From: a virus
Lineage: Duplodnaviria; Heunggongvirae; Uroviricota; Caudoviricetes
Reading direction: 5' to 3' (one strand)
Length of the DNA stretch: 20,229 nt
IMG/VR virus record: IMGVR_UViG_2609459769_000010
This document shows, one piece after another, positions 1 through 20,037 of the stretch. The position numbers and the translations under genes are program-made. Position 1 is the first letter of the stretch; each line of letters starts with the position of its first letter. Under the pieces are notes generated by a model. That model was not told where the DNA came from, did not search any database, and was given only the letters and a program-made list of their open reading frames with translations.

Positions 1-930
1 ATGAAGATATCTCTTGTAGTTCCTGTCTTCAATGAAGAAGAAGCGATACCAATTTTTTATAAAACGGTACGTGAATTCGAAGAATTGAAGTCATATGAAG
101 TGGAAATTGTTTTCATAAATGACGGCAGCAAAGACGCTACGGAGTCAATTATTAATGCTCTGGCTGTTTCAGATCCTCTAGTTGTTCCGCTGTCATTTAC
201 ACGCAACTTTGGTAAAGAACCAGCATTGTTTGCAGGGTTAGACCATGCAACTGGCGATGCCGTGATTCCAATTGATGTTGACCTGCAAGACCCGATTGAG
301 GTTATTCCTCATCTTATTGAAAAGTGGCAGGCAGGTGCTGATATGGTACTTGCTAAGCGCTCTGACCGTTCTACAGATGGAAGACTGAAGCGCAAGACTG
401 CTGAGTGGTTCTATAAACTTCACAACAAAATAAGCAACCCAAAAATTGAGGAGAACGTCGGAGATTTCCGACTAATGTCTCGAGGAGTTGTGGAAAACAT
501 TAAATTATTACCAGAACGCAACCTGTTCATGAAAGGAGTATTAAGCTGGGTTGGTGGTCGTACAGATGTTGTTGAATATGCTCGCGCTGAGCGCGTTGCA
601 GGAACAACTAAATTTAATGGGTGGAAATTATGGAACCTGGCTCTGGAGGGTATCACTAGCTTCTCTACATTTCCTCTGCGTATGTGGACTTACATCGGTC
701 TTTTTGTTGCCGGTTTGGCATTCATTTATGGTGCATGGATGATTTTAGATAAGCTGATATTTGGAAATGATGTTCCTGGGTATCCATCAATTATTGTGTC
801 TATACTATTTTTAGGTGGTGTGCAGCTTATAGGGATCGGTGTGCTTGGAGAATACATAGGAAGAATATATATTGAGTCAAAAAACAGACCAAGGTATCTT
901 TTAAAGGAAAATGACTGTGAAAAAAAGTAA
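1..930 (+). CDS. gtrB: Bactoprenol glucosyltransferase GtrB (GT2 family, O-antigen glucosylation/seroconversion)
   Basis: 309-aa ORF starting at window position 1. Translation recalled as near-identical to E. coli K-12 YfdH/GtrB and Shigella phage GtrB ([17 protein letters not shown]..., DGSKD, C-terminal TM helices). gtrA would lie just upstream, outside the window. Confidence 0.93.
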
Positions 931-2686
931 TTTAATTATAATATCAGCATTAGCTATAGTATATTGCTTGCCAATTATTCTTGGCACATCATATTATTAT
1001 GATGATCTTTTCCGAGCCTATTCAGGCTATAGCTCATGGAGTTCAGATGGAAGACCGTTTGCTAATACCTTTTATCAAATACTGACCTTTGGTCAAATGA
1101 TGCCTGATACGTTTCCACTTGCACTTATAGTATCAATTTTTATTTTTGCATATATCGGGAGCAAGCTTGGTAGTTTCTATGGTAAGATTAATTCATACAC
1201 TTACTGTTTTGCCTATACAACGATTATAATGTCACCATTATTTATATCTAATTTATTATTTAGATATGACTCTGCATTTATGATGCTTGCTATATCGGCC
1301 TGCATTGTTCCATACGTAGTTACTTTAGATAAAAAAATAAATATAGCTTTCGGCACTTTGGCTGTTATTTTTTCATTTGGACTTTATCAAGCAGCAGTTA
1401 GTATTTTTATTGCTTTTGCTGGTATAGAGCTATTTATAAATAGTTGTTTTCATGATGCAAAAAAAACCATTAAAAACTGCCTCATTAGAATAATGCAACT
1501 AGCTGTGGCTTATGTTATTTACTCAAAAATCATACTTGGATTTTTTGTAATTAACGACTATTTCAAAGAATTTAACAAACCTATATCACTAAGTGCAGAT
1601 GGTATATCGCGGTTAATGGCAAACATATCATCTTCTATGCATAACATAATATTGATGTTGAATTCTGGATTCTTAATAGCTGTAACTCCAATAATATGTT
1701 ACTCCCTTTTTTGTATTGTAAAGCACTCTATAACCAACAAGAAACCATATTCTATAATTGGTTTTATTCTGGCATTGGTTGCTTTATCTATTGCAGTTCC
1801 GGGTATAGCGATATTTGGTGAGAAGCCAATTTTCTATCCAAGAATTTATATTGGTGTTGGTGCATGTCTTTTCTTCATATGCTTCATACCAGTTATGTTG
1901 AATGGGAATAAGAAGATAACTATTGCTGTGCAATTTATTTTCATTTTTTATCTATTTGGCATGATTAACGCAACAAGCAATGCGGTTAGATCTGACGTTG
2001 AGTTTCAAAAAGCAACGTCTCAGAGAATTATAAACATAATTGATAGCAGTTACCTTTCAATTAATCATAAAGTTGTTATTCTTGGTCAACTTCGCCAGTC
2101 TCCATTATCATACATCAACTCATTATCATATCCATTGATTAACATATTGTCGCCGCAGCACTTTATCAATGGTTATGACGGTGGTCGATTCGTACTTATG
2201 CATGAGGGGCTTGACAATATTGAATATCCGGATATTCAAGAGCAAAGCAAATACAGAGATGCAATTAAAAATTCAAAACCAATATTCTCAAACAATATTT
2301 TTTCAATATATAACATTAATTCAACTACGGTCATATCTTTTGAGAATACATTATATGACGAAGCGAATAATAAGATGATACCATATACATTTAAGAGTAA
2401 CATGGTAAGTAATGCTCATTACGGTGATAAGTATTTCTATGCTTGCATTTCAAATACAGTATCCCCTACTCTTAAAAGAAACGAGTGGTACTATCTACTT
2501 ATTCACAATAAAGATGGTTCAGTCATTAACAGAAATTTTTTCGCTCCTTATTCAATGCATAATGACGAAAGTACATGCGTTAACACTCAATGGAAGGAAC
2601 CTGTTTCGTTAGAAGATATAAACTCAATTGAGTTTGGAATTTACAACATAGAAACAATGCAAAGGCGGTTAGATCTAGGCTCATAA
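911..2686 (+). CDS. GtrC-type serotype-specific O-antigen glycosyltransferase, polytopic membrane protein with long hydrophilic C-terminal domain
   Basis: 591-aa ORF overlapping the gtrB stop by 20 nt, with AAGGAAA RBS. N-terminal ~370 aa are very hydrophobic (multiple TM helices); C-terminal ~220 aa are hydrophilic. Strongly AT-rich compared with the rest of the window. Sits where the third gtr gene is found in P22/SfX-type conversion modules. Confidence 0.6.
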
Positions 2687-2690
2687 TTTT

Positions 2691-2714
2691 AAGGCCTCTG
2701 TTGAGGCCTTTTTA
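2691..2714 (+). terminator. Rho-independent terminator of the gtr operon
   Basis: AAGGCCTC-TGTT-GAGGCCTT hairpin followed by TTTT, 5 nt after the gtrC stop. Confidence 0.6.
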
Positions 2715-2893
2715 CGTAATATTTAAATTCCTATACATTCCGTTACCATACCACGCTTGATCTGGATGCCATGGTTTCAGCGCATATGAATTCGTCTATA
2801 TTTATTAAAAATTTCTCTGGATATGCGGTAGATAGTGCTATTTATTCACATAATAAAATAAGAATAGATTTACTCGTATATAACTATGTTTGA

Positions 2894-2931
2894 TAGAATT
2901 AAGAAAACGGCTCCCTGTAGTGGAAGCCGTT
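2894..2931 (-). terminator. Possible terminator downstream of tailspike
   Basis: AACGGCT / AGCCGTT 7-bp stem (12-nt loop) followed on the - strand by TTTCTTAATTCT. About 80 nt past the tailspike stop. Confidence 0.3.
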
Positions 2932-3007
2932 ATAGTGCTGCAGTTTAAAGACAGATCAACCAATCCTTAACTGATCGGCATTGCCGGATGACCGGGCTTT
3001 TACATTT

Positions 3008-5212
3008 TTAGAATGCTTTCAATGTAGAGGCTTCTGAACCAGCACAGGTAAGAACTATCTTGTAGTACCCGGTTTTAGCCCCCCCTGAAACTCCTGACCA
3101 GTCAAAATTTAACTGCAATATAGCTCCGTTTTCATTTGGCGCACCGTAATTAACACTAGGTGCCCCTGGAGTAGAGATATCGAACATTGGCATATTTGCC
3201 GCCACTGAGTTTGCATTATACGAGTTGGTATTTCTGGCATCATTTCCTTGAGATGCAGTGATTACAGGCCATTCACCACCCAGAGCACTCTTTTGTACCA
3301 CCTCTATCGTTGCAGGTCCATTTCTCAACAACACTCCCTCGTAATACACATTTCCATGCGTACCACCGGTTCCATGTATTTGTATAGTGGCGAATCCGCA
3401 ATCAGCATAGTTGACTGATGGATCGAACGTCTGATGATACATATCAGATGGCAATGGCATAACAACTGCTGATAGTGTTGCTGGGGATGGCATTGATGTT
3501 CCTGTCCCAGTATTCATTGCAGGAACCCTGAGCTTTATTGATTCGGCTTTTCCACGAATGTTGCTGTATCCATCACCATGTGTATTGATCATATGAACAG
3601 GCCTAACAATTACTCCTTGAATAAACGCATTGCCATCAGCTATTTTTGCGAATGTAATTGTTTTCCATCCTCGACCAATCAATTGTCCGGCGTGCTTTAC
3701 CATTCCTGTGCTATTGCCGCCTCTATTACGAAGTGGCCATCCATATTGTTTTCCTTGATAACTTAGATTGCTACTAACTGGATAATTCAAATCGTAGTAT
3801 GGTGGCTTCGTTCCTGTGTAATTCTCAACTGGATGCTGAACCAGCATGCTTAAAACAACATCATCCCAACTGCCAATAACATCTATCTCAGCAGCTTCTG
3901 CATCAAGATAAAAGCTGTACGACATTACTGCGCTACCAGTTATCGGGAACTGTCCAGTTATTCGTTGTTGAGTATATGCAGCTCGATCAAAGACAATATT
4001 GAAATTGTTAGTAGGCAAGGCCATGCCAAAATGATCAGACATCATAGTGGGCCACATCATGATTTCTGATGATATTGGTTTGTACGATGGAGAAAGACCG
4101 CCAGCCATTAACATTGATGCGATTGCCTCACCCATTCGCTGATACCCCAATGAGTTAAAGTGGGTGCCGTCGCTTTGCACTACACCCTGTGGCATGTTGA
4201 ACTGAAGCTCGCCAAGGTTAATATGTGCGCAGTTATATAGTGTGGCTAAGTTTTTGACCTGAAATGCATATGACTGTTGGTAGTTAGCCAAGTTAAAATT
4301 GTACATACTAAAACTACCTGACGCAGTTTGACAAACAAGAACACCCATCCCCCAATCAATAAAGCGACGTATCAATTTTTCCATATACTCAAGGTACTCA
4401 TTGATGTCGCCCTCATTTGCATCGTTAATCGCATACATTAAAATTGCCAAGTCGCAATTAGGGTTTGTTTGCCAGTCAGGATTCTCATAGGCATTTTTTG
4501 CCGTGAAGCCTGAAATTGCCCTTACAGTTATTGATGTTGGCGCCCCTGATTGTTCCTCAAGATATGATCCAAGACGAACAGGATACGTAACTGTGGCATG
4601 AGTTGCGTTATCAGGGCTTCCTTCAACAATATCTGTTGATGAAATATCATATCCAGCAGTTATTGAATCTCCCTGACAAAGAATTTTTAATGGACTTCTT
4701 GATTTAATCAGGTAGTTTACATTAAGTAACATCCTTATATTTCTTGAACCATAGTTAGCAGAATCATTAGCAATATTACCTTTCGCATTATCATCAAGGG
4801 CTTCCTGAATCGTCTCTCCACTAACAGTGCCAATCATTCCTGCCCCAGTGCTTGATGTTAGTCTTTGTTCTAACTGATCGGGATCATACTTCAGCACATT
4901 TGGAAAATAGAACTGCTGCACACCGTACGCATCATAAACAGCCATAGAATGGCCTTGCACAGTTACGAATTTGGCAATCTGTCCGTTATATACCGGATAT
5001 CCGGCAGCATTTATAACGATTGGTTGTGACACTTGAACATGAGTGCCGTCTTCTCGTTCCAGATATACTGGAATCTGGTTTTCAGGATTTACCGGATCAG
5101 TGTCAATTTTACCGATATAAATTTTTCCATTGGCTACGGCTTTAAAAGAACGAGCCATAGTGAAGAGTTGCGAAGGCATCGATACGATCACATTGGCTGT
5201 AATGTCTGTCAT
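3008..5212 (-). CDS. Tailspike protein: P22 gp9-like N-terminal head-binding domain fused to SGNH/GDSL esterase domain and C-terminal beta-rich domain
   Basis: 734-aa ORF with GGAG RBS. First ~115 aa ([41 protein letters not shown]...VLKYDPDQ) match the P22 tailspike head-binding domain as recalled. Downstream carries SGNH hydrolase blocks: GDSIT (aa 181-185), INDAN (GxND-like), DGTHF (DxxH). Confidence 0.85.
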
Positions 5213-5270
5213 TTAATTTGCTCCAGATACAATGAATCGCCGCAGCGTGGCCACGGTGAATTTTGGGCAT

Positions 5271-5293
5271 AAAAAAACCCAGCCGAAGCTGGG
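5271..5293 (-). terminator. Rho-independent terminator between ejection-protein genes and tailspike
   Basis: On the - strand: CCCAGC-TTCG-GCTGGG followed by TTTTTTT. Confidence 0.6.
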
Positions 5294-5343
5294 TAGTTGC
5301 GTTGGTTATCTGTCAGTAGTTATGTGCTTATTTAATTATTTAT

Positions 5344-7188
5344 CTATTGTTCTGCTGTAATTTGGCTTGAAAGTATAGGGCGTATCGCATTTGCAGCATT
5401 ATTTAACGCTCTTTCATAAGCTGGCGTTCCTGCTTTGGTGTTTGCCAAACGAAGAAGCATATTCCTTGCGGCTTTGGACTCATACAAACGCATCATTGCA
5501 CCAAAACCAGCCTCAAGCCCCATTGATACACCAAGAGTCGCAGTTGCGCCAATCGTCCTTATCCTGTTGGCTTGCGATTGCCCCGTCTGAGTTACTACAT
5601 TTGCGGTGTCTGACCTTGCTGTTTGCTGTAGAACTTCATGAAGAGCATCAAGCTCTTTCATGTGCTTTCCAGAAAAAATAGTGTTGTAAATTTCACCGCC
5701 TGACTGAGATTTCAGCTTATTAACTTCAGTGATGAACTTGGCTGGAGAGTCACCGGCCTTTTCCGCTATTTTGCTGACGTAAGCTGCACGCATAGCATCT
5801 TTCCCTTTATCATCCAGTGCGCTCCAGATTCGTTTCACGTCAGATGGTTTTCTGCTTAATACAACGGTATTTATAAGTTCAGGACTGGCTTCACTGCTTG
5901 CCTTGTTGAGCTTGTTAGCAATGTTTTTATTAAGCACCTTATTATAAACGTTTGCATAATCGGAATTTGCTTTAAGGTATTTTGCTGCGTCTGATGCACC
6001 GAGGTTTTTAGCAACTGCGTTACGAAGGTCTTTTGACATTGCATTCTCTACCATATTGGTAGCTGCTTTTGCCTGGTTGGGGAAGACCATAGCATCTCCC
6101 TGAACATTAGATCTAAATGCTGTTCTGTGCTGACGCAAGAGATCAAACGTAACATCCAAATCAGTTGCAGGGTTTGCTAATTCTTCACGTAGGTTACGCA
6201 AGGATGTAAGCAGGCTTTGATTGGCAGACGTCCCAAGCCGTTCCTGTCTTGCGATCGCTGTATTCAGAGCATTCATGGTATTTGTGGTATCAACTGCGGC
6301 ATTACCCATTTTATTGGTGACGTCATTGATAACAGCGCCAGCGGCATCCTTCCGCCCCCTTAACGTGGTGGTCAGAGATTTCACCACATCATCAGGGTTA
6401 TACTCACCAAAACGGTCAAAATAATTGCTTACCAGTTTACTACGCGTTGCATATTGCTCCGCTCGCTTTGAGCCTGTCCCGAGCAAAGCACCCTCGGCAT
6501 CCTGAGTAAGGCCACGAGTGAAAGCATTTTTCGGCGGGATAACATCAGATGTCATTGGTGTCACGCCCATCGATTCTGATGTGGCAATTTTCTTCGCCAC
6601 TTCTGGCGCAATATCACCTTTTATAGCCGTTATTCCACGCCCTATTCCCTTTGCTGCTGCGGAAAGAACACCCTGAGCGGCAAGGTTAACTCCGGCATTT
6701 TTAGCTGCATTTTGTGCGAAATCGCCTTTCTGATTTGCGGCCTCTGCCAGTGAGCCAATAGCCATGCTTCCTGCCGTTCCAACTCCTGGAACTAAATACC
6801 CACCAATTGTTTCACCGGCTTGTGCGTATGGGTCTGTCGGTTTGTCTACTGGACGATAAACATCATCCAAAACTTTTGGCCCACCAAGCCCCTGACTGAT
6901 TGCATTAATCAGACTTGCGCCACCCTGCAATACGTCAAATGGTATGTTTACCAGACCACGACCAGCCTGTTCTGCAATTTGCCCTGCACTTTGACCACCA
7001 GTGAGCCAATCGCCAGCTTGTTGCATCAATGATGGTTCGTCCCGTGTTGGTGCATTATTGGACTGATTAACTGTTTGTTGCTGAACAGCCTGACCAGCAA
7101 AATACTCATCAATGGCGGTGCCAATATCTTCGGTGCTCGTACCATCAGGAAAGGTAAATGTCTTACCGTTTGCAGTTACTTTCATCAT
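5344..7188 (-). CDS. Ejection (injection) protein, P22 gp16-like
   Basis: 614 aa (P22 gp16 is ~609 aa by recollection). Last gene of the gp7-gp20-gp16 series. Start ATG overlaps the upstream stop (ATGA). Gly/Ala-rich, low-complexity composition typical of E proteins. Confidence 0.7.
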
Positions 7189-8591
7189 TCCACCGTAAAT
7201 TGAATGCCTGATTTTGAGGTATATGATCCAACCTGATTCCGTGGTTCTCCTGAAGGTGTCGAATCTTGTGCTGGCGCTGCGTCAGTATTCATTGACATAT
7301 ACCGCTTAACGGCACTCCCCAATGATTCACCTTTTTTAACATCCAACCCCAATATCTGACCGCCATTACGCGATTGTCCAGGGTTGCCATTCGCGCTCAT
7401 CCACTCGGCTTTAAACTCATTAAACTGCGCGTTTCGTCGCTCAAGGTTTGCCATTGCATCAAGCCATCTTGCGACCGTCTCAGGGTTATCCATGTCAGTT
7501 GGCGCACCCTGTCGAACGATCTCAACGTCTTTATCCGTTGCTGGGCCGGGAGGTAGGAATTTAAGAACCTGACTGTTAACAAGGGCATTTTGGCGAATGC
7601 GCAAATCACGCAATGTTGTATCGCTTCCGGTAAGTTTTGCGAACATGTTCTGTGCGTTACCGAACAAACCTGTCGTTGGTTTTTCTGCTCTGAACTGTTG
7701 AGCAAGCGCACTCATAGAATTGGCTGAGTTTGATGATGCTGTAGCATTGTTTACAGCCGTCTCGATGCCTTTTTCCATGTTTACTGACAGCTTAGGTGCT
7801 TCGCTAATCAACTGCTGAGCCTTTTCCTGCGCTTGCTGCATCTTAAACCCGAACTCTTGCTGATCCAGAGCCAAGCGTTGTGCTGCGATATTGTGCCCAG
7901 TCATTGCTGACTGATAGGAAAGGTTTTGCCCTCTCGCCTGAAGTGCTTCTCCAGCCTGATTGCTGCGGATTGTCTCTGCCAGTCTGCCTCGGTCAATTTC
8001 ACGACCAGCCATCTTGTCCTGAACATTGAAGTAATCAATCGGACCAAGAGCAGCCATCCCAAGGTGATCAACAAACTCACCAAATCCTGAAGGATTCTGC
8101 TGATACATCTGAGCAACGCTGTTAGGGTCAACACCGACGCGAGTCAGTTCCTTGGCGTTGTTTTGCAGCCATGATTGCATTGCTTCTGGAGACGATGACG
8201 CAAGGCGTGCGCCAGCCGCTAAGGTGCCGATAGAATTGCGCTGGTCTTCATCAATGAATCCCATGCCTTTACGAACGGATTCAATCTGGTCTGGATATTG
8301 AGTAGCCAACTGACGCAAAGCACCGCGATCACCAGACGCATAAGCATTAGCGTATGCCTGCTGAAATTCTTTCTGCCGCTGAGCCTGCTTTTCCTGCTGA
8401 AACACCCCCGCAATACCTGAAAGGCCTTGCAAAGCAGTCAGCCCAACATTGTTAGCGCCTGAACGCTCAATATCATTGTTCTGTCTGATAAGCTGAAGCG
8501 TATTGCCGATGTCATTTACGCTCGGAGCGTTTGAGTTGACACCACCGATACCAGCCAACAATCCGCCATTTGTTCCTTGCCAAGTAGCCAT
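7185..8591 (-). CDS. Ejection protein, P22 gp20-like
   Basis: 468 aa (P22 gp20 ~471 aa). Gene order and size match the P22 E-protein cluster. Confidence 0.7.
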
Positions 8592-10602: not shown

Positions 10603-12024
10603 TACTCAATCCTTATCTGAGCGCCAGACAGAGTGACAGGTGACTTCGTGATAACGCGCAATTTGAAGCCAACATTTTTCCTGATGCGCCCTACCCGCTT
10701 CCACAAAACGCGTTTGTCGTAAACGAACGGTTCATTCTGCTCAATCATCTGCTCACGCCCGTAATTGATGCCGTCAGTGGTTGCAGAGAGAAAAAGGCGG
10801 TCAGCATACTGCGCAACTCCAGTTGAAGATTCAACCTCAAGGTCGAACACCCGGGCGTTATCCGCTTTGAACAACGGAGTAAACAGCAGGTGTTCCTGTT
10901 GAAGCCCATACTGGCTGCTGATATCGAACTGCAATTTCCCGGTCACCGATTCCAGCTTATCGCCGCACGTTATTTGATTGCCTTCGTAAATGAAGTCGAT
11001 AGCGCGGTACACATCGTCATACAGGCCTGTTTTCAACACACACCATTGCGGACCATTGGCGCTTGAAGATGCGTCGTATACGAGGACATGGCGCGGAAGA
11101 TGGATAATCAGCAACTCATGCGCATCAAACCGCAACGATTCCATCACACCATCAGCCAGTTCATCAGCAGTGTAGGAGCGGAGGATTTTCTCAATGCTCG
11201 CGCTGGCGATTGGTGACACCTGACCGGAGCCGATGATGTATACAGATGGCGCACCCGTTGCCGGATTGCTGATGAACGCATACGAATCAGCAAACGGCGT
11301 TTTGCAGTAAGTCCCGGCGATGCCTTTTTGCACCATCAGTGATGGCTGTGCGACATACAAAGCAGCACCAACGGTGGTTGCGCCAGTCAGGGAGAAATAT
11401 TCAATAGTCGATGAACCAAAGCAGACGATGAAGTCTCGCCATGTCCCGATACCGATGATGCCGTCCGGCTGAGACTCGGCACGATATTGTGCGCTGTAAC
11501 GGTCAGGATGCGATTCGTCTTCAAGGTCAGTGATAAACCATGAATCAGTGCCGTCTTTTGACCACGCATAACGCCCACGTAAGCGCGTAATGTCACGAAC
11601 CGAACCTAACTCATACTGAGTGAATCCGCTGTCTGTAGGCCAGTTTGAGACTGTTTTAACCGTGCCATCATAGCGATACTCGACCAGTTGACCATTAACA
11701 CCTACCGCCTGTGATGTCCGACCATGCGCCATTGATACACGACCACTTCCGGCAACATCACCGACTTCACTTTCTCCTTTGTACAGCTTGCCGCCACACA
11801 CGCGATAAACAGCACTCTGCGCCATGTTGTACTCAACTCCGCGCGATACGCCGTTCACATCAGAACGTTTGGCAATGCCCGGGAATGAGCGAAGATAGTC
11901 TGTAAACACCAACAAGGCGCTCTGCGAACGCCCTGTTATTTGCTGCGGCTACCACTAATCCCTCAGGTGAATCAGGGTGTCGAATCTCTTCTTTTTCCTG
12001 GTATTTCTTACGACGTTTTGTCAT
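10602..12024 (-). pseudogene. P22 gp10-like tail hub/head-completion gene, reading frame interrupted (two frames)
   Basis: The 437-aa gp10-like frame (10602..11915) has no ATG; an in-frame TAG lies at 11949-11951. A strong AGGAG RBS plus ATG at 12024 opens a second frame (MTKRRKKYQEKEEIRHPDSPEGL...) that stops at 11860, overlapping the first. Span from 12024 to the gp10-like stop is ~473 codons, close to the P22 gp10 length (~472 aa, recalled). Frameshifted gene, sequencing indel or deletion fusion are all possible. Confidence 0.5.
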
Positions 12025-12058
12025 AATTACTCCTGTGGATTGATCCAGTCTTTCTACA

Positions 12059-12337
12059 TCAGGCCTCAAAACTGTTGCAGCAGTCTTGAGGCTTTTCTTT
12101 TGTCAGCACCATGGCTACTTTCTTTGCCAGCTCCGCTAATTCCTCGTCTTCAACACCCCACTCCAGCACAGCCAGAAGCATGGCCATCTTTGGGATAAAG
12201 CTGTCTTTCCATCGCGAAATTTGCGATTCATTAATCCCTAACGCGTCGGCAACCTTTCGCTGACCACGTACAGCAATTCGATTCAGGATGTTGCTTGTAA
12301 TTGCATTCGCTTTCTTGCGAGTACTTGTAAGTTGCAT
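12059..12337 (-). CDS. cII: Transcriptional activator CII
   Basis: 92-aa product (MQLTSTRKK...SQISRWK...MLLAVLEWGV) aligns with lambda CII (QISRWK, MLLAVLEWGV). The 5' leader ...TTATCTAAGGAAATACTTACATATG is essentially the lambda cII leader. Confidence 0.85.
   Translation of the reverse strand: MQLTSTRKKANAITSNILNRIAVRGQRKVADALGINESQISRWKDSFIPKMAMLLAVLEWGVEDEELAELAKKVAMVLTKEKPQDCCNSFEA
12291..12330 (+). promoter_or_regulatory. Candidate CII-dependent promoter (pRE-like) TTGC-N6-TTGC motifs
   Basis: On the + strand inside the 5' end of cII: TTGCTTGTAATTGC (perfect TTGC-N6-TTGC) and TTGCGAGTACTTGT. Lambda pRE sits in the same place and orientation. Confidence 0.3.
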
Positions 12338-12416
12338 ATGTAAGTATTTCCTTAGATAACAATTGATTGAATGTATGCAAATAAATGCATACACCATAGG
12401 TGTGGTTTAACTTGAT

Positions 12417-12446
12417 GCCCTTTTTCAGGGCTGGGATGTGTAAGAG
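12417..12446 (-). promoter_or_regulatory. nutR (boxA + boxB) N-utilisation site
   Basis: - strand reads GCTCTTACACATCCCA-GCCCTGAAAAAGGGC: boxA-like GCTCTTACA and a boxB hairpin identical to lambda nutR boxB. Lies between cro and cII. Confidence 0.8.
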
Positions 12447-12456
12447 CTGGAATGTC

Positions 12457-12672
12457 TTAAGCGGCTTTGTGTTCCGGCGGGAACACGTCATCAAGACTGA
12501 CTTTTGCGCCTAACTTGTTTAGGCACTCAACAAGAGCACGGCATGTTTTAAGGTCTGGGAAGCGACGACCAGATTCCCAATGTCCGATAGCTCCCTGTGT
12601 GCATCCAACTGCCTTAGCAAGTGTTGTTTGAGAGATATTCAGTGACTCTCGATATTTTCGTAGGTTGCTCAT
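12457..12672 (-). CDS. cro: Cro-like repressor (HTH, XRE family)
   Basis: 71-aa product MSNLRKYRESLNISQTTLAKAVGCTQGAIGHWESGRRFP..., with GGAGGG RBS. Divergent from cI, first gene of the pR transcript. Its recognition-helix motif TQG-IGHW..G.R.P is shared with the cI N-terminal domain. Confidence 0.75.
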   Translation of the reverse strand: MSNLRKYRESLNISQTTLAKAVGCTQGAIGHWESGRRFPDLKTCRALVECLNKLGAKVSLDDVFPPEHKAA

Positions 12673-12698
12673 ATGCCCTCCATAGTAACCATGAAGCA

Positions 12699-12727
12699 AT
12701 AATACGATATGTACTTTTAGAATGCAA
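12699..12727 (-). promoter_or_regulatory. pR promoter with embedded operator (oR1-like)
   Basis: - strand reads TTGCAT - 17 nt (TCTAAAAGTACATATCG) - TATTAT. The spacer and -10 contain AAAGTACATATCGTATTAT, almost the same as the element in pL. Confidence 0.55.
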
Positions 12728-12783
12728 ACAAAAAATACATCTTGTGCATGGATGATTTTAGTACAGAGCGTAATAATAAGGGT

Positions 12784-13443
12784 ATGAAAATGAAATGGTA
12801 TGAACTGGCTAGATCCAGAATGAAAGAGCTCGGCATAACTCAAGAGAAGTTAGCTGAAGAGCTTGGTATGACGCAGGGTGGAATTGGTCACTGGTTGCGC
12901 GGATCTCGTCATCCATCTCTTGACGAGATTGGTGTGGTGTTTAAATACCTTGGTATTGATAACGTCTCATTCAACCACGACGGTACATTTTCACCTGTTG
13001 GCGAATACTCATCTGCCCCCGTTAAAAAACAATATGAGTACCCTGTTTTTTCTCATGTTCAGGCCGGGATGTTCTCGCCTGAGCTTAGAACCTTTACCAA
13101 AGGTGATGCGGAGAGATGGGTCAGCACAACCAAAAAAGCCAGTGATTGTGCGTTCTGGCTTGAAGTTGAAGGTAATTCCATGACCGCGCCAACAGGATCC
13201 AAGCCAAGCTTTCCTGACGGGATGTTAATTCTCGTTGACCCTGAGCAGGCTGTTGAGCCAGGTGATTTCTGCATAGCCAGACTTGGTGGTGACGAGTTTA
13301 CCTTCAAGAAACTGATCAGGGATAGCGGTCAGGTGTTCCTACAGCCACTAAACCCGCAATATCCAATGATTCCATGCAATGATAGCTGTTTCGTAGTAGG
13401 GAAAGTTATCGCCAGCCAGTGGCCTGAAGAGACATTTAGTTAA
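12784..13443 (+). CDS. cI: CI repressor (S24 peptidase/LexA-like C-terminal domain; distinct N-terminal HTH domain)
   Basis: C-terminal ~130 aa ([115 protein letters not shown]...) nearly identical to lambda CI as recalled. N-terminal ~90 aa HTH domain is unlike lambda CI. Start chosen at ATG 12784 (MKMKWYEL...); the upstream TTG/ATG at 12742/12748 are alternatives. Confidence 0.85.
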
Positions 13444-13475
13444 CAGCCTCACAACTCTAAAACACACAACAATAA

Positions 13476-13505
13476 CCCGACCTTAGCGTCGGGTTTTCTT
13501 TTTCC
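13476..13505 (+). terminator. Rho-independent terminator after cI
   Basis: CCCGAC-CTTAGC-GTCGGG hairpin followed by TTTTCTTTTT. Confidence 0.55.
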
Positions 13506-13568
13506 AAAATATAAACCTATTAAATACAAAGCGTTATAAAAAACTAATTATATTTAGAACATTTTGTA

Positions 13569-13597
13569 TTGACTCGATAAAGTACAAATCGTACTAT
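13569..13597 (+). promoter_or_regulatory. pL promoter with embedded operator (oL1-like)
   Basis: TTGACT - 17 nt (CGATAAAGTACAAATCG) - TACTAT. Contains the inverted repeat AGTAC-AAATC-GTACT and matches the pR element (consensus AAGTACAWATCGTAYTAT). Confidence 0.55.
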
Positions 13598-13636
13598 TTA
13601 GCCATCAGCAGGACGTACTAACCACCATGAAGGTGA

Positions 13637-13667
13637 TGCTCTTAAAAATTTAGCCCTGAAGAAGGGC
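13637..13667 (+). promoter_or_regulatory. nutL (boxA + boxB)
   Basis: TGCTCTTAAAAATTTA-GCCCTGAAGAAGGGC: boxA-like plus the exact lambda nutL boxB hairpin, upstream of N. Confidence 0.85.
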
Positions 13668-13777
13668 AGCATTCAAAGCAGAAGGCTTTGAGTAGCGCGA
13701 AATGCAGCTGCAAGACAGCAACCGTGGAGATAAGCATCACGGCGCGTTACTCAAAGCTAACTGACAGGAGAATCCAG

Positions 13778-14104
13778 ATGGATGCACAAACACGCCGCCG
13801 CGAACGTCGCGCAGAGAAACAGGCTCAATGGAAAGCAGCAAATCCCCTGTTGGTTGGGGTAAGCGCAAAACCAGTTAACCGCCCTATTCTCTCGCTGAAT
13901 CGCAAACCGAAATCACGAGTAGAAAGCGCACTGAATCCGATAGACCTTACGGTGCTGGCTGAATACCACGAACAGATTGAAAGCAACCTGCAACGTATTG
14001 AGCGCAAGAATCAGCGCACATGGTACAGCAAGCCACGCAGTGAAATGGGGGTGACTTGTGTTGGTCGCCAGAAAATGAAATTAGGCAGCAAACCACTTAT
14101 TTGA
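13778..14104 (+). CDS. N: Antitermination protein N
   Basis: 108-aa product MDAQTRRRERRAEKQAQWKAANPLLVGVSAKPVNRPILSLNRKPKSRVESALNPIDLTVLAEYH..., near-identical to lambda N over most of its length. AGGAG RBS. Confidence 0.9.
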   Translation: MDAQTRRRERRAEKQAQWKAANPLLVGVSAKPVNRPILSLNRKPKSRVESALNPIDLTVLAEYHEQIESNLQRIERKNQRTWYSKPRSEMGVTCVGRQKMKLGSKPLI

Positions 14105-14114
14105 GGACTGATAC

Positions 14115-14357
14115 ATGAGAGTAAAAACTATGGGCGCAAGCCCATTAAGTGGTCGTATTTTTCAAGGAACATTAAACACTGAAAAAGGAATGTGGGTAGG
14201 AAAGAGAGAAGATGTCACCGATCAGGCAGTGAGGGCAGTAGCCGAACACATGATGATAAAAGACCAGAAATATGCATACGAAACGAAGGATGGCAAATGG
14301 CTGATAATAAGTCATCAACTGGTTGATAAATTACCAGAAGAGTTTGTTGATGGTTAA
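14115..14357 (+). CDS. Hypothetical protein (80 aa), early-left cargo gene
   Basis: ORF with GAGGA RBS directly after N. AT-rich. No recognisable motif. Confidence 0.5.
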   Translation: MRVKTMGASPLSGRIFQGTLNTEKGMWVGKREDVTDQAVRAVAEHMMIKDQKYAYETKDGKWLIISHQLVDKLPEEFVDG

Positions 14358-14414
14358 ATTTGCTTTGGAATAAGCAACAGAATAAACACTGCACTGAATT
14401 ATTTGAGGTGAGAT

Positions 14415-14885
14415 ATGACAAAATCATGGAGCGTACCTTTTCCTGAATCAGAAACTGAACATGATGGAATGCCTGTTTTCTGGAGATTCCAAGCGACAGT
14501 TGAAGAAGATGGAATCAAAATATTCGCACTTCAATATATAGCTTTTCATCAGACAGAGCATTATGCATGGTTGGTTCCTGCGCATTGGATTGTTGATTTT
14601 AAACCAGCACCAAATCAGTGGTTACAGGAATGGAAACAAAGGAGAAATAGATATGCAATTAAGAAAGTAGCAAAAAAGGCAGAAAGATCTTTTGCGTTCC
14701 CGACGAAGAAACTTGCCATTGAAAGTTTATTGCGCCGGAAGAAATACCATTTGATGAGAATCAAACAAGATTTGGCTGTTGTATCAACTCTTGTTGATGG
14801 GATGAAGAATATTGATACATCAACACCAGATATTGAATATAACTTTGGACACAACCAAGAAACAGAAAATTGGGTATTTTATTAG
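14415..14885 (+). CDS. Hypothetical protein (156 aa), early-left cargo gene
   Basis: ORF with GAGGTGAGAT RBS. AT-rich, basic Lys/Arg-rich central segment. Followed by a strong terminator. No recognisable motif. Confidence 0.55.
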   Translation: MTKSWSVPFPESETEHDGMPVFWRFQATVEEDGIKIFALQYIAFHQTEHYAWLVPAHWIVDFKPAPNQWLQEWKQRRNRYAIKKVAKKAERSFAFPTKKLAIESLLRRKKYHLMRIKQDLAVVSTLVDGMKNIDTSTPDIEYNFGHNQETENWVFY

Positions 14886-14989
14886 TACGAATAAGCACTG
14901 TGTATTCATTCCAACGAGTGAATACACGGAGCAATGTCGCTCGTAACTAAACAGGAGCCGACTTGTTCTGATTATTGGAAATCTTCTTT

Positions 14990-15017
14990 GCCCTCCAATG
15001 TGAGGGCAGTTTTTTTT
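14990..15017 (+). terminator. Rho-independent terminator (tL-like)
   Basis: GCCCTC-CAATGT-GAGGGC hairpin followed by AGTTTTTTTT. Confidence 0.65.
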
Positions 15018-15030
15018 GACGGAGTAAACG

Positions 15031-15279
15031 ATGATAAAAACTGATTACCCTGCAGAGCTTAAACAAAAAGTAATAACAGCAATTAAATGCTCTTTTATCT
15101 CATGTCGTACAGATGAAGAACGATATGTCGTTGAGTGTGCAATTGTCGAGTTTCTCACAGCGATGGAATTTACCGCTGCAGAATCAATAGATGTATTAAA
15201 GCAATCAGACGGAAATGATATTGAAACGGATGATGTTATTGACCGACTAATAAAATCATTCGAAGAAGAAATAGAGTAG
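15031..15279 (+). CDS. Small acidic hypothetical protein (82 aa)
   Basis: ORF with GGAG RBS. Highly acidic (many D/E, C-terminus EEEIE). Sits just upstream of the cIII-like gene. Confidence 0.5.
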   Translation: MIKTDYPAELKQKVITAIKCSFISCRTDEERYVVECAIVEFLTAMEFTAAESIDVLKQSDGNDIETDDVIDRLIKSFEEEIE

Positions 15280-15362
15280 CCGCCTGAGCGCGGCTTTACC
15301 GCATACCAATAATGCTTCACGAGAGGCATTTTCGTTATGCAATCAAATATAAGGAGTTACCC

Positions 15363-15497
15363 ATGATGCACTTTCAGCTCGCGGGTAGCGGCGTCATGTC
15401 CGCTTTCTACCCGCACGAATCTGAATTATCACGCCGAGTTAAACAATTAATCAGAGCAGCAAAGAAACAACTGGAGGCGTTATGCGCAATGAAATAG
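15363..15497 (+). CDS. cIII: CIII-like protease (FtsH) inhibitor
   Basis: 44-aa product MMHFQLAGSGVMSAFYPHESELSRRVKQLIRAAKKQLEAL... resembles lambda CIII (AIAGWPVAG...PSESLLERITRKLRDGWKRLIDIL). AAGGAG RBS. Position between N and kil. Confidence 0.55.
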   Translation: MMHFQLAGSGVMSAFYPHESELSRRVKQLIRAAKKQLEALCAMK

Positions 15498-15634
15498 CCA
15501 TCAATCACCAGATGCTTCGTGCTGCACAAAACAAAGCAGTAATAGCCAGATTTATTGGTGATTCCAAAATGTGGCTTGAAGCAAATAAAGCGATGAAATC
15601 AGCTATCAACCTTCCGTGGTATCGCAGGAAATGA
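15482..15634 (+). CDS. kil: Kil-like host-killing (FtsZ-inhibiting) protein
   Basis: 50-aa ORF overlapping the cIII-like 3' end (below the ORF-track size cutoff): MRNEIAINHQMLRAAQNKAVIARFIGDSKMW... The IA.FIGD.KM motif and the position immediately after cIII fit lambda Kil as recalled. Confidence 0.45.
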   Translation: MRNEIAINHQMLRAAQNKAVIARFIGDSKMWLEANKAMKSAINLPWYRRK

Positions 15635-15709
15635 GTTTTACAGATAACTGGTCAGACGAAGAATTCATTCGTCAGATGAAAGATTTAATCGGTAACGAAG
15701 GAGATATTC

Positions 15710-15880
15710 ATGCCACTTGCAACCACAGTGAAGGAGAGCAAGTTACAGAGACGCATGTACACGCAGCAGGCGTTAATGTATCGCAAGAAGGGAGATCGTG
15801 AAGGTGTTCGCGTATTTTTAAATGCGGCAAAGACCGAAGTATTAAACCAGCGTTATTTCCTTGGGCCATGTCCATTCTGA
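15710..15880 (+). CDS. Small basic protein (56 aa) immediately upstream of the annealing-protein gene (position analogous to P22 arf)
   Basis: ATG preceded by AAGGAG at 7-nt spacing; product MPLATTVKESKLQRRMYTQQALMYRKKGDREGVRVFLNAAKTEVLNQRYFLGPCPF. An overlapping alternative frame (15631..15801) starts as ATGA coupled to the kil stop; which one is translated cannot be resolved by eye. Confidence 0.3.
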   Translation: MPLATTVKESKLQRRMYTQQALMYRKKGDREGVRVFLNAAKTEVLNQRYFLGPCPF

Positions 15881-15888
15881 GGTGAATT

Positions 15889-16596
15889 ATGGATTTGAAC
15901 AAATTCGATGAGCCATTCAGCCCTGAAGATATCGAATGGCGAATACAGCAAAGCGGTAAAACACGCGATGGAAAGGTGTGGGCTATGGTGCTGGCTTATG
16001 TCACGAACAGAGCAATCATGAAACGCCTGGACGATGTTTGCGGCAAAGCAGGATGGCGCAATGAATACCGCGATATTCCCAACAACGGAGGCGTTGAATG
16101 CGGCATATCAATCAGGATTGATTCCGAATGGGTAACCAAATGGGATGCTGCTGAAAACACGCAGGTAGAAGCCGTCAAAGGTGGTCGTTCAGGTGCAATG
16201 AAGCGTGCTGCCGTTCAGTGGGGAATCGGTCGGTATCTGTATAACCTTGAGGAAGGTTTCGCACAAACATCTCTCGATAAAAAGCAGGGATGGCACAGGG
16301 CAAAACTCAAGGATGGAACAGGATTTTACTGGCTCCCTCCATCGCTGCCGGGATGGGCAATCCCAGCATCAGATAACAAACCATCACCAGAAAATACCAA
16401 CCAGAAATCTCCATCGGTTGACTGCGAGCAAATCCTGAAAGACTTCAGCGATTATGCATCAACAGAAACTGACAAGAAAAAACTCATCGAGCGTTATCAG
16501 CGTGACTGGCAATTAATGGCTGGCAACGAGGAGGCGCAGGCTAAATGCGTCCAGGTAATGAACATCAGAGTTAACGAACTAAAACAGGCGGCATAA
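15889..16596 (+). CDS. Rad52/Sak-type single-strand annealing protein (phage recombinase)
   Basis: 235 aa with GAGGTG RBS. Conserved core ...AMVLAYVTNRAIMKRLDDVCGKAGW...AMKRAAVQWGIGRYLYNL... typical of phage Rad52/22-family annealing proteins. Sits directly upstream of ssb. Confidence 0.75.
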   Translation: MDLNKFDEPFSPEDIEWRIQQSGKTRDGKVWAMVLAYVTNRAIMKRLDDVCGKAGWRNEYRDIPNNGGVECGISIRIDSEWVTKWDAAENTQVEAVKGGRSGAMKRAAVQWGIGRYLYNLEEGFAQTSLDKKQGWHRAKLKDGTGFYWLPPSLPGWAIPASDNKPSPENTNQKSPSVDCEQILKDFSDYASTETDKKKLIERYQRDWQLMAGNEEAQAKCVQVMNIRVNELKQAA

Positions 16597-17070
16597 ATGG
16601 GAAGTAGAGGCGTAAATAAGGTGATCATTATTGGTCGCCTTGGGCATGATCCAGAAATCAGATATTCACCATCAGGAACGGCATTTGCAAACCTTACAGT
16701 TGCTACGTCAGAACAATGGCGTGATAAGCAAACTGGAGAGCAAAAGGAGCAGACGGAGTGGCACCGTGTGGTAATGAGCGGGAAACTGGCAGAAATTGCC
16801 AGCGAATATCTGCGAAAAGGCTCTGAGGTTTATCTTGAAGGCAAATTGCGGACAAGAAAATGGCAGGATCAAAGCGGACAGGATCGGTTCACTACCGAAG
16901 TTATCGTGGGCGTTGGTGGAACCATGCAAATGCTTGGTGGCAAGCAAGGAGGCAATGAACAGTCTTCACCTCAGCGAAATAACGGCCAGCAACAAAGACA
17001 GCAATCTCAGCAGCATGGGAATCACAGCGAACCACCTATGAACTTCGACGATTCGGATATTCCGTTCTAG
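16597..17070 (+). CDS. ssb: Single-stranded DNA-binding protein
   Basis: 157 aa. OB-fold N-terminus ([36 protein letters not shown]...TEWHRVV), Gly/Gln-rich linker and acidic C-terminal tail DDSDIPF. Confidence 0.92.
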
Positions 17071-17079
17071 GAGCTGAAT

Positions 17080-17559
17080 ATGAAAATCTGCTCAAGATGC
17101 CATCAACAGAAGGAAGAAAGGGACTTTCAAATCAGAAGAGCATCCAGAGATGGATTAACTGCCGCTTGCCGGGCTTGCCTGGCTGAATACGACAAAGAAC
17201 GCGCTGGATTGCCACATCGAGTATCAGCAAGGAGAGAATATCAATCATCGGAACGCGGAAGAGAACGGTGTAACGCAGCCAAAAAGCGGTTCATTCAGAG
17301 CAACCCATGGAAAAGAAAAGCGCACATCATTGTGGGTAATTTTTTGCGCGACGGTAAGCTAATCCGACCACCACAATGTGAGTGCTGCGGATCAGAATGT
17401 AAACCACAGGCGCACCACTGCGACTACAGCAAACCAACCGATGTGATGTGGCTCTGCAAGTCATGTCATGTCGAGTGGCACAAACATAACAAACCTATCT
17501 ACCCAGACGAGGAACCAGTAACTCTCCCCTTCCCTCGTCACGCTATTCACGCAATTTAA
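17080..17559 (+). CDS. Cys-rich zinc-finger / HNH-like endonuclease family protein
   Basis: 159 aa with AGGAG RBS. CxxC...CxxC at the N-terminus and C-terminal CECCGSEC...AHHCDY...WLCKSCHVEWH (His-Asn-His-like metal-binding motif). Confidence 0.5.
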   Translation: MKICSRCHQQKEERDFQIRRASRDGLTAACRACLAEYDKERAGLPHRVSARREYQSSERGRERCNAAKKRFIQSNPWKRKAHIIVGNFLRDGKLIRPPQCECCGSECKPQAHHCDYSKPTDVMWLCKSCHVEWHKHNKPIYPDEEPVTLPFPRHAIHAI

Positions 17560-17572
17560 TCAGGAGAAAACC

Positions 17573-17869
17573 ATGCCAGCGCCTCTGTATGGTGCGGACG
17601 ACGCACGCCGCTGTTCCGGCAATTCCGTATCGGAGGTGCTGGATAAATTCAGAAAAAACTACGACCTGATAATGTCTCTACCGCAGGAAACGAAAGAGGA
17701 AAAGGAATTTCGCTATTGTATATGGCTTGCAGAGAAAGAAGAACGCGAGCGAATTTACCAGACATCAATCCGACCATTCCGCAAAGCCACATATACCCAC
17801 TTCCCTGAATATATCGACCCGCGCCTGCGTAATTACCGCTCACGCTATGGCGCTATCAGTAATGACTGA
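17573..17869 (+). CDS. Hypothetical protein (98 aa)
   Basis: ORF with AGGAG RBS. Tightly packed in the early-left operon. Confidence 0.5.
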   Translation: MPAPLYGADDARRCSGNSVSEVLDKFRKNYDLIMSLPQETKEEKEFRYCIWLAEKEERERIYQTSIRPFRKATYTHFPEYIDPRLRNYRSRYGAISND

Positions 17870-17879
17870 GGAATTAACA

Positions 17880-18170
17880 ATGAAAACAATGAAGCTAAAC
17901 ATCGACCTCGGCAAATACGTTATTACCGGAACAAAACACGACCTGATTCTTAGTGAAAGAGGAATTATCAAAGAAGGCGAGAATGCAGGGAAAGAAACAC
18001 TAAGCCGTATCGGTTATTACAGCAAGTTTGAGCATCTGGTCAAAGAGTTATGCAACCGTGAAATCCTGTTATCTCAGGCGCAGACGCTACAGGATATTCA
18101 GCAACATATCGAGACTTTAGGTGTGTCACTTAGCATGGCTATTGACCAGTTCGTGGAGAGTAAATCATGA
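17880..18170 (+). CDS. Hypothetical protein (96 aa)
   Basis: ATG at 17880 preceded by GAGGA ([14 protein letters not shown]...). The ORF-track start at 17727 overlaps the upstream gene and lacks an RBS. Confidence 0.5.
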
Positions 18171-18334
18171 GAGGACTTGCATACAATACCGGCATTCTTC
18201 CGGCAGAAATGATTATTCGCCAACGCGTAAAGCCAATGCCATCGAGAGAGGAATTGCTTAAGAGAAATTCTTTTCCGTCAGTAAATCAAAACAAATATCT
18301 GAATGCGATGTGGCGCAAAGGAGGCAAGCAGTGA
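18167..18334 (+). CDS. Small hypothetical protein (55 aa)
   Basis: ATGA overlap with the upstream stop and GTGA overlap with the downstream start (translational coupling). Below the ORF-track cutoff. Confidence 0.3.
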
Positions 18335-18630
18335 GTGTATATCTTATTGATAAACGTCGACGTGGGCAACAAATACCACCTGTAGGAATTCCGAATCACA
18401 CATGGTTTTGCGTACTTGATATCGATGGTATGGATGCGTTGGTTGACACTCTTCATTACTGCGATACCGCAACAGCTACTCCGGCGAAAGCAAAGAAAAT
18501 GGCTGCTCTGATAGAAAACTGGACTCCACCTGATGGTTGGTGCAATGGGAATGATCGAGATTGGCATGAAAAAATGAAGGGCTATATCTGCGATTTTTTA
18601 CGTAAATGCAACGGATTCAGGGTGATGTGA
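18331..18630 (+). CDS. Hypothetical protein (~99 aa)
   Basis: GTG start preceded by AAGGAGG at 6-nt spacing; [33 protein letters not shown]... Confidence 0.45.
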
Positions 18631-18631
18631 C

Positions 18632-19186
18632 ATGAGCAAAATTAACTATCAGGCACTGCGTGAGGCGGCAGAGCAGGCAATGCATGACTACTGGGGGTTT
18701 GATGCGGACCTTTTCCATGAGCTGGTAACACCATCGATTGTGCTGGCACTACTGGATGAACGGGAAAGAAACCAGCAATACATCAAACGCCGCGACCAGG
18801 AGAACGAGGATATTGCACTAACGGTTGGGAAACTGCGTGTTGAGCTGGAAGCCGCAGAGAAGCGCAACGCAAAATTACAAAGCGAGAATGCATACATCCG
18901 CAACCGGTTCAAAGAGCTGGACCTGTTAATCGGGAAAAACATTCTGGTCATGCAGGCTGCGATTATCGAATGGCAGGAAACTGGCGACGCTAAAAGCGGA
19001 CTGGCATGGATTTATAACACACTGTTTGGTCCTGGCGAATTGCCGGACGAATCTGAGAAAGATGCTCAGGCCTACTTTAATCGCAAATATGCACCGATTG
19101 ACGAAAAGCTTATGGCGCTTCACAAGTGGTTTTGGGAACAAAGTGAAGCCGAGCTCGCCGCTGGCATTCGCATCAAAGGAGAGTGA
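18632..19186 (+). CDS. Ea22-like early protein (coiled-coil)
   Basis: 184-aa ORF packed against its neighbours. Central coiled-coil (KLRVELEAAEKRNAKLQSENAYIRNRFKELD). Position and architecture resemble lambdoid ead/Ea22 proteins; assignment from recollection only. Confidence 0.4.
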   Translation: MSKINYQALREAAEQAMHDYWGFDADLFHELVTPSIVLALLDERERNQQYIKRRDQENEDIALTVGKLRVELEAAEKRNAKLQSENAYIRNRFKELDLLIGKNILVMQAAIIEWQETGDAKSGLAWIYNTLFGPGELPDESEKDAQAYFNRKYAPIDEKLMALHKWFWEQSEAELAAGIRIKGE

Positions 19187-19187
19187 T

Positions 19188-19739
19188 ATGAGCGCTATAA
19201 CCGATAAGAAACAGTATCCAGGCGAGCAATATCTTAATGAGCTAATCACCAACATAGAGTTTGCTGCAAGGGCTCCAGTTGAAGTCGTGAGAGCGATGGC
19301 AGCAGAGCTACAGAAGCGGCGCGAAGCTGATAGTGCAGAACCTGTAAGCCAAACTTACAAGTTGCCTCCCCTGTCATCCAACGAAGTAAACGACGCGGCA
19401 TGGAAATTACACAACATGCTGACTGAACACGGCCCGCTAAATGGGCGTCAGTTCAACAATCTGAAAGGTTGCTTCTATGAGGCATTAAAGGTCGCAATGC
19501 GCAACTATCCGGTAACTCCGGATGGTTGGATAAGCTGTAGTGAGCGAATGCCGGATACCAAAACAGCCGTTCTTGTTGCCGTGGAGTTTGACAGGAAAGG
19601 TGACTGGCGAATGAAATGGGCGACTTACATCCCGGGGCATCCTGACGCTAATGATGGGTGGATAATTCCTGGTGCGTCGTGGAAACCGTCACACTGGATG
19701 CCGCTACCAGAACCGCCGCAGGAGGTTAACCGTGGCTAA
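19188..19739 (+). CDS. DUF551-domain phage early protein
   Basis: 183 aa. C-terminal W.SCSERMPD...VLVAV...GW...HWMPLPEPP resembles the DUF551 signature common in lambdoid b-region proteins. Confidence 0.45.
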   Translation: MSAITDKKQYPGEQYLNELITNIEFAARAPVEVVRAMAAELQKRREADSAEPVSQTYKLPPLSSNEVNDAAWKLHNMLTEHGPLNGRQFNNLKGCFYEALKVAMRNYPVTPDGWISCSERMPDTKTAVLVAVEFDRKGDWRMKWATYIPGHPDANDGWIIPGASWKPSHWMPLPEPPQEVNRG

Positions 19740-19771
19740 CCTGCAACTTGCCGTCAAAGGTGAATAACAAT

Positions 19772-19826: not shown

Positions 19827-19839
19827 ATGGAGATGATAA

Positions 19840-20025: not shown

Positions 20026-20037
20026 TGGAGAATTAAG

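Follow-up and report, generated by a model that had tools for sequence, protein, structure and literature searches.

The window, by which we mean the whole 20,229-nt stretch of tailed-phage DNA analysed here, belongs to a P22-like prophage and opens with two genes of the O-antigen conversion (gtr) operon, a GT2 gtrB gene and a gtrC-type glucosyltransferase gene, which converge on a tailspike gene read from the opposite strand (Table 1). The gtrC-type ORF overlaps gtrB by 20 nt (911-930) when it is read from its first ATG (591 aa); other annotations place its start 6 nt later (589 aa). The tailspike combines a P22 head-binding domain with a GDSL/SGNH esterase receptor-binding part. Between the two stop codons, TAA at 2684-2686 for the gtrC-type ORF and TAA (reverse complement) at 3008-3010 for the tailspike ORF, lies the gap under study (2687-3007). 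The original prediction had described it as a 320-bp AT-rich spacer; the gap is real and AT-rich (36.1% GC vs. 44.6% for the window and 31.9% for gtrC), but its length is 321 nt and its AT-richness is confined to positions 2711-2899 (29.6% GC), with 44-50% GC in 2900-3007. As had also been stated, no plausible ORF was found, and the gap is non-coding today: its longest ORFs encode 40 aa (2771..2893, plus strand) and 41 aa (2838..2963, minus strand), the latter spans a recombination junction, neither has a match in Pfam, and no annotated RefSeq feature underlies the match to window positions 2687-2905 in five E. coli genomes that share this stretch. In two related viral contigs, L010 and L011, whose GtrC proteins are 96% and 84% identical to that of the window, gtrC and the tailspike gene are separated by 28 bp; the gap in the window is approximately 11 times longer, and is therefore an expansion that needs explanation. 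Comparison with relatives divides it into five pieces.

Table 1. Features at the gtrC-tailspike convergence (positions in the window).
Feature	Position	Strand	Basis or remark
GT2 gtrB gene	1-930		context of the gap
gtrC-type serotype-specific glucosyltransferase gene	911..2686	+	591-aa ORF; Pfam Glucos_trans_II, 86 bits
Predicted intrinsic terminator of the gtr operon	2691..2715 (hairpin 2691-2710)	+	inverted repeat and fold
Decayed relic, last ~45 codons and stop of a former P22-type tailspike	2712..2831	-	DNA alignment, tblastn
AT-rich piece	2836-2899 (about 65 nt)	none	carried along with the gtr module
Transposase-proximal end of an IS4-subgroup insertion sequence (84 nt, 5' untranslated)	2900..2983	-	alignment to full copies
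IS-derived hairpin, 10-bp stem, 6-nt loop, then UUUUCUUAAUU	2906..2931	-	terminator scan, fold
Terminal inverted repeat of the IS4-like element, CAATGCCGATCAGTTAAG	2966..2983	-	sole match in the window, 0.02 expected by chance
3' flank of the present tailspike with distal part of the original bidirectional terminator (CCGGATGACCGGGCTTTT)	2984..3007	none	comparison with E. coli E423
Tailspike gene	3008..5212	-	734 aa; Pfam Head_binding 215 bits, Lipase_GDSL_2 46 bits

The terminator that the original prediction had assigned to the gtr operon is borne out as a structure, its activity being predicted. An 8-bp stem (AAGGCCTC/GAGGCCTT) with the 4-nt loop TGTT is followed by 4-5 T (U5 in the transcript); the hairpin folds with -14 kcal/mol (z -4.05), a value that none of 200 shuffles equalled, and it is kept, with a variable loop, in the window, in the prophage of E. 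coli JKHS016, in L010 and in L011. A terminator scan called the homologous hairpin in L010 a terminator and missed the one in the window, probably because only 4 T are left there after the maximal stem. The combination of a GC-rich stem-loop with a U-tract that defines intrinsic terminators is found both here, on the plus strand, and at 2931-2906, on the minus strand; the gtr transcript would accordingly be expected to stop at 2691-2715. At the other end of the gtr operon, prophages for which more context is available (L001 2453-2842; L014 9685-10074) have a small gene for an S24 peptidase (UmuD/HumD-like) that is oriented divergently to gtrA and separates it from the host gene dacD; this gene, at the edge of the prophage, may be cargo.

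Immediately rightward of the gtrC hairpin that they share with the window, L010 and L011 have the 3' end of a tailspike gene: these tailspikes (732-742 aa; Pfam Head_binding, PF09008, 221 bits) end 28 bp from gtrC, and the 28 bp hold a single hairpin terminator. The window has the decayed counterpart of this gene end. Positions 2711/2712-2831 are collinear with L010 4804-4938 at 71.7% identity, with an alignment score of 26 vs. 10.5 +/- 1.6 in 500 shuffles (z 9.9); the indels relative to L010 measure 5, 1, 5, 1, and 4 nt, and the substitutions are biased 18:9 (2:1) toward A/T. A tblastn search yielded two collinear HSPs in frames -2 and -3 that correspond to residues 687-731 of the 732-aa L010 tailspike (E 8e-5) and include the segment AWYG--NGMYRNLNI vs. 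AWYGLGNGTYGNLNI; the stop codon is kept as the reverse complement of 2712-2714. What is left thus matches the C-terminal 45 residues and the stop of the L010 and L011 tailspikes, is spread over two frames, and amounts to ~6% of the gene. Judged from the alignment and the tblastn matches together, the AT-rich core of the spacer reads as a pseudogene fragment, a relic and not a gene. With 2712-2831 homologous to coding DNA at the 3' end of the L010 and L011 tailspike genes, a large part of the "spacer" turns out to be dead coding sequence; conservation as coding sequence in relatives, which had been named as the observation that would count against a non-coding spacer, is therefore present in a historical sense, although nothing intact remains here. 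When the C-terminal part of the L010 tailspike was searched against phages by tblastn, only relatives with <36% identity were obtained, and the old tailspike type is thus without a close sequenced phage relative. The end of the relic reads GTTTGATAGAATTAA at the junction. The adjoining AT-rich piece (2836-2899) was found only in the lineage of the window and in the five E. coli genomes, and has no significant similarity to the L010 tailspike (z 1.3), so that its assignment to the old tailspike was rejected; a weak tblastn match there crosses the IS junction and is spurious. A blastn search of the spacer against the phage collection gave no match.

The fourth piece is the stump of an insertion sequence, which runs from the outer terminus of the IS to the A of the transposase ATG (the A is at 2900). 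It was aligned to full copies of the element, a pseudogene copy (L002) and an intact copy on plasmid NZ_CP062900 (L008), and is 91.8% identical to positions 1347-1430 of the intact 1430-bp element (E 3e-29). Insertion sequences of the IS4 subgroup are 1400-1650 bp long, have ends of the form -AATR--------WTW, and generate direct repeats of 10-13 bp (De Palmenaer et al. 2008, PMC2266710). The terminus in the window, read inward from 2983 to 2966, shows AATG at positions 2-5 and TTA at positions 14-16 in agreement with this signature, and the outermost 34 nt of the stump are 97% identical to K-12 IS4. The parent element resembles the subgroup in its 1430-bp length, in its ends (CAATGCCG.TCA.TTAAG, of the CAATG...TTA type), in its target duplications elsewhere (11 bp, CCCGAACTGAA, in L008; 10 bp in L002), and in its single DDE transposase of 445 aa (NCBIfam NF033592, 263 bits with a cut-off of 115). 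Since this transposase is only 39% identical to K-12 IS4 InsG, the parent is a distinct IS and not IS4 itself. Nothing else of the element was found in the window: the transposase gene and the other end are absent. The window therefore holds IS positions 1347-1430 in place of a single DDE/YREK transposase gene, one terminal repeat in place of two with a 10-13-bp duplication, and 84 nt in place of 1400-1650 bp (1430 bp in the parent); with no transposase and one end it would be unable to move, and by its sequence it is an immobile fragment rather than a member of the IS4 subgroup.

Remains of this element are common in E. coli. In a blastn search of complete E. coli genomes, 2900-2983 matched thousands of places that are annotated as "IS4 family transposase" or not at all; IS4-like pieces occur in 3025 of the 5426 genomes, and at least 80% of the element is kept in 162 of them. 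K-12 lineages carry a 989-bp deleted copy (near 1.29 Mb) annotated "IS4 family transposase". Intact copies seem to survive mainly on plasmids, and the element appears to be largely extinct in chromosomal DNA. The other relics represent the same element (88-95% identity), and truncated transposase-proximal ends are common among them too; they sit in chromosomal or plasmid junk, whereas the stump in the window sits in a prophage tailspike terminator and forms a module junction. In E. coli LHM10-1, an unannotated, decayed, and internally deleted relic between a porin gene and eno (L003 2168-2585) retains IS positions 1323-1431 at 95% identity, together with fragments at 71-76%; an unannotated 87-bp match of this eno type appears in at least 10 of 30 records among the matches listed, so that this relic may be widespread and old. 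The chromosomal dsd region (L018 1960-2090) and plasmid p3PCN033 (L019 1960-2090) share the same junction on unrelated replicons, at which an IS200-like hairpin end (AGCCTAGCTGGGGG) has inserted into the IS4-like transposase gene a few nt past its start; this indicates a composite fragment that has moved between replicons. The inner edges of other solo ends consist of this IS200-like end or run into decayed IS sequence; the edge of the window stump was considered as a recurrent truncation point and rejected, as the other solo ends are a few nt longer and their boundaries differ.

Within the stump lies the hairpin that had been proposed as a candidate tailspike terminator (2906-2931). Its sequence is AACGGCTTCC-ACTACA-GGGAGCCGTT, followed by TTCTTAATTC; it was the sole terminator-like site in a scan of positions 2500-3200 (0.5 expected), has a folding energy of -16.5 kcal/mol (z -5.5), and is still present when 126 nt of context are folded with it. 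As it is situated wholly inside the IS stump, this "tailspike terminator" is IS-derived and not the tailspike's own; the native one is split at 2984-3000 and intact in E. coli E423. In the intact IS, UUUUCUU-AUG comes after the hairpin, whose 3' arm includes GGGAG; the hairpin at the same position in K-12 IS4 (-22 kcal/mol) is unrelated to it in sequence and precedes U7-AUG, and thus both elements place a strong hairpin and a U-tract directly before the transposase start codon. In IS10 and IS50, hairpins sequester the transposase start and protect against read-through from outside. The IS4-like hairpin is likewise directly upstream of the ATG and carries the Shine-Dalgarno-like motif GGGAG in its 3' arm, and by analogy the hairpin of the intact IS probably blocks outside read-through and hides the ribosome-binding site of the transposase; in the literature, no documented function was found for the hairpin of IS4 or of the IS4-like element. 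The ATG is absent from the window, so that only a terminator role could remain. Here the hairpin is the first terminator-like structure past the tailspike, about 77-105 nt after its stop codon; most likely, the late tailspike transcript would stop at the hairpin 2931-2906 and its U-tract, which would have replaced the native terminator, and a stop at this site would limit antisense transcription into gtrC.

The native terminator can be read from E. coli E423, where homology to the window begins exactly at 2984 and continues with 99.1% identity over window positions 2984-4768. The uninterrupted site in E423, AAAAAGCCCGAATGACCGGGCTTT, is a bidirectional hairpin between convergent genes (-13.2 kcal/mol, z -2.7); in the window, the IS terminus GGCATTG ends at 2983 and is followed by CCGGATGACCGGGCTTTT, the proximal A-tract and arm having been lost, and the half-hairpin that remains at 2984-3000 folds no better than shuffles (-6.1 kcal/mol, z -0.4). 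The outer IS/tailspike junction is accordingly GGCATTG/CCGGATGACCGGGC; for a full IS in the tailspike terminator, the opposite junction would be expected to read AAAAAGC-CCGGATGACC(G)-CAATGCCGTTCAC. Such targets recur among copies of the element. The L002 copy sits in the loop of AAAGCCCAC-AGAT-GTGGGCTTTTT, and the eno-downstream copy in L003 adjoins CCGC-CGAA-GCGG-TTTTT; in three of the five insertion sites read (the window, L002, and L003), the element is in a hairpin followed by a T-run. K-12 IS4 itself sits in an AAA-N20-TTT site with a 12-bp duplication, in keeping with the AAA-N20-TTT target rule for IS4, and shares with the IS4-like element the preference for A-tract...T-tract targets. 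Strong target-arm specificity is reported for some members of the IS4 subgroup (PMC2266710). Given the target sites of the other copies and this specificity, insertion into the tailspike terminator is what would be expected of such an IS.

Alignment to related prophages also located the seam between conversion and virion modules, which the original prediction had presumed within this gap, at 2902/2903. Window positions 1-2902 are 99.93% identical to gtrB-gtrC and their 3' flank in the E. coli JKHS016 prophage, and four other E. coli genomes share this block with JKHS016; in all three annotations that were read (JKHS016, VE-F10, AST198), the block is followed by an acyltransferase gene and a different tailspike. 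Positions 2984-4768 correspond, with 99.1% identity, to the E423 tail protein in its receptor-binding part together with the 3' flank, and 4872-7217 return to JKHS016 with 97.6% identity, which places a second recombination boundary inside the tailspike gene, between 4768 and 4872. The E423 tail protein (L004 6024-8402) shows a weak match to a T7 tail-fibre N-terminal domain instead of the P22 head-binding domain; one receptor-binding module thus seems to be common to two tail-attachment types. The window and the JKHS016-type prophages (L001 6216/6217) diverge at the same nucleotide, 2902/2903, within a microhomology of 3 nt, and both right-hand cassettes begin with a strong hairpin 3-4 nt past the junction. 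Genome, viral, and metagenome collections were scanned for exact matches to the IS/tailspike junction, to the 3' end of the tailspike, and to the end of the relic; apart from one chance match in an actinobacterium, only the contig of the window itself (IMGVR_UViG_2617270950_000015) came up, and the scans found neither a third partner for the 2902/2903 junction nor a copy with a complete IS at the tailspike terminator site. An identical tailspike is present in 12 contigs (NCBI and Logan assemblies), and all four of the other contigs that were read have the identical 321-nt spacer; the arrangement is therefore not an assembly artefact.

Taken together, the gap is likely to be a composite recombination scar, left by successive tailspike replacement beside the gtr operon, and not a dedicated regulatory spacer; its five-part anatomy and its three parental sequences are directly visible in the comparisons, and the order of events is a reconstruction. 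The ancestral layout would have been that of L010 and L011, where gtrC and a convergent tailspike are still 28 bp apart and separated by one hairpin terminator. An IS4-like element would have inserted into the A-tract/palindrome/T-tract terminator just 3' of a tailspike of the E423 type. An illegitimate join at the TAA microhomology (2900-2902) would then have linked the interior of the IS to the remains of the old tailspike; this join would fall exactly at the transposase start codon and would have deleted the transposase gene together with the other IS end. A second, homologous crossover within the conserved head-binding domain (4768-4872) would have completed the cassette exchange. None of the genomes found has the complete IS in this position, and the sequence of insertion and subsequent truncation, and the target duplication, are therefore deduced from one IS end. 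A single random illegitimate join does not predict the behaviour of the JKHS016-type prophages, which break at the same 2902/2903 and continue with an unrelated acyltransferase cassette; the coincidence may reflect shared descent followed by a later exact replacement, or a recombination hotspot associated with hairpins.

Other readings of the gap account for parts of the evidence. If it were an ordinary intergenic spacer, unremarkable apart from a native gtr terminator and a native tailspike terminator, the two strong hairpins with U-tracts that face the convergent genes and the lack of an intact ORF with family support would both be explained; yet the hairpin on the tailspike side is part of the 84-nt block that matches an IS4-like end at 92% identity, the native terminator is cut at 2983/2984 by comparison with E423, and 2712-2831 is homologous to tailspike coding sequence, all of which render this reading highly improbable. 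The suggestion that the gap could hold a small RNA can be framed as a 3'UTR-derived transcript that ends at the IS hairpin, or as an antisense transcript that runs from a residual transposase promoter toward gtrC. The stump does keep TTGATC-19 nt-TATAAC (TTGACC-19 nt-TATAAC in the intact IS), the strong hairpin and U-tract could set a stable 3' end, and the 126 nt of the tailspike 3' region fold more stably than shuffled sequence (z -3.0). However, the 19-nt spacer is outside the usual range, and a promoter scan returned 0 sites vs. 2.2 expected from shuffles. Rfam 15, searched at permissive and gathering thresholds, gave no family at its gathering score in the gap or in the whole window (best match 22 bits, E 0.04), and the best match within the gap, ctRNA_p42d with 20.7 bits vs. 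50 required, is simply the IS hairpin. What structure the sequence has is accounted for by the origin of the relics that make it up, and the region is kept in no diverged relatives; the small-RNA idea thus found no backing and is very unlikely.

The 40-aa ORF on the plus strand might be regarded as a real small-protein gene, as it has an ATG start and was called, without a family match, by one pipeline in GCA_000711565.1. Against this stand the lack of a Pfam match, the lack of a RefSeq feature at the homologous location in the five E. coli genomes with this DNA, the weak GGA that alone precedes the ATG, and the course of the ORF antisense through the decayed tailspike relic; the homologous DNA in L010 and L011 is tailspike coding sequence on the opposite strand. 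Synteny and relic homology therefore explain the sequence of this ORF, and a genuine gene here is extremely unlikely, close to negligible. The 84-nt IS piece could, finally, be an independently mobile miniature element or the product of one-ended transposition rather than a deletion remnant, which would accommodate the solo ends of ~85 nt at several other chromosomal and plasmid sites in E. coli. The window has a single terminal repeat, the other solo copies have different inner boundaries (the IS200-like end in L018 and L019, decayed IS in L003), and no second inverted repeat with a direct duplication around a unit of ~85 nt was seen; such an origin is exceedingly improbable. A functional elaboration of the recombination scar, in which the IS hairpin has been co-opted as a late-operon terminator that shields gtrC and 2902/2903 is a hairpin-associated recombination hotspot, is unlikely as well, if less so; were it true, the hotspot would be a favoured docking site at which receptor-binding and O-antigen-modifying cassettes are exchanged beside gtr operons.

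The recombination scar has close parallels in P22-like phages, for which exchange of the receptor-binding domain has been described in the analysis of epsilon34 (PMC2629481) and in work on tailspike modularity (PMC10408124). As in these cases, the head-binding domain is kept (the first 118 aa are ~92% identical to those of L010), the C-terminal part is unrelated, and one crossover lies just after the head-binding domain; the gtrABC operon of P22-like phages is likewise convergent with the tailspike. In contrast to typical P22-like genomes and to L010 and L011, which have a compact junction without relics, the window retains the stump of the old tailspike and an IS fragment. It thereby offers an example, at the nucleotide level, of a temperate phage that has changed its receptor specificity with both ends of the tailspike replacement still visible, one end being a classical crossover behind the head-binding domain, the other an illegitimate join via an IS fragment beside the stump of the previous tailspike. 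An element of the IS4 type appears to have targeted a phage terminator hairpin, and its own hairpin may now do the work of that terminator. For annotation, the 40-aa ORF should be labelled as a relic feature, and the apparent "tailspike terminator" as IS-derived. Each component belongs to a known kind, be it the intrinsic terminator, the IS4-subgroup fragment, or the pseudogene relic at a joint of the phage mosaic, and current understanding is unchanged by their combination. Farther along the window, the long leftward series of virion genes is over beyond ~12 kb, and the ORFs in the remainder (~12000-20229) are shorter, mostly rightward, and sparser.
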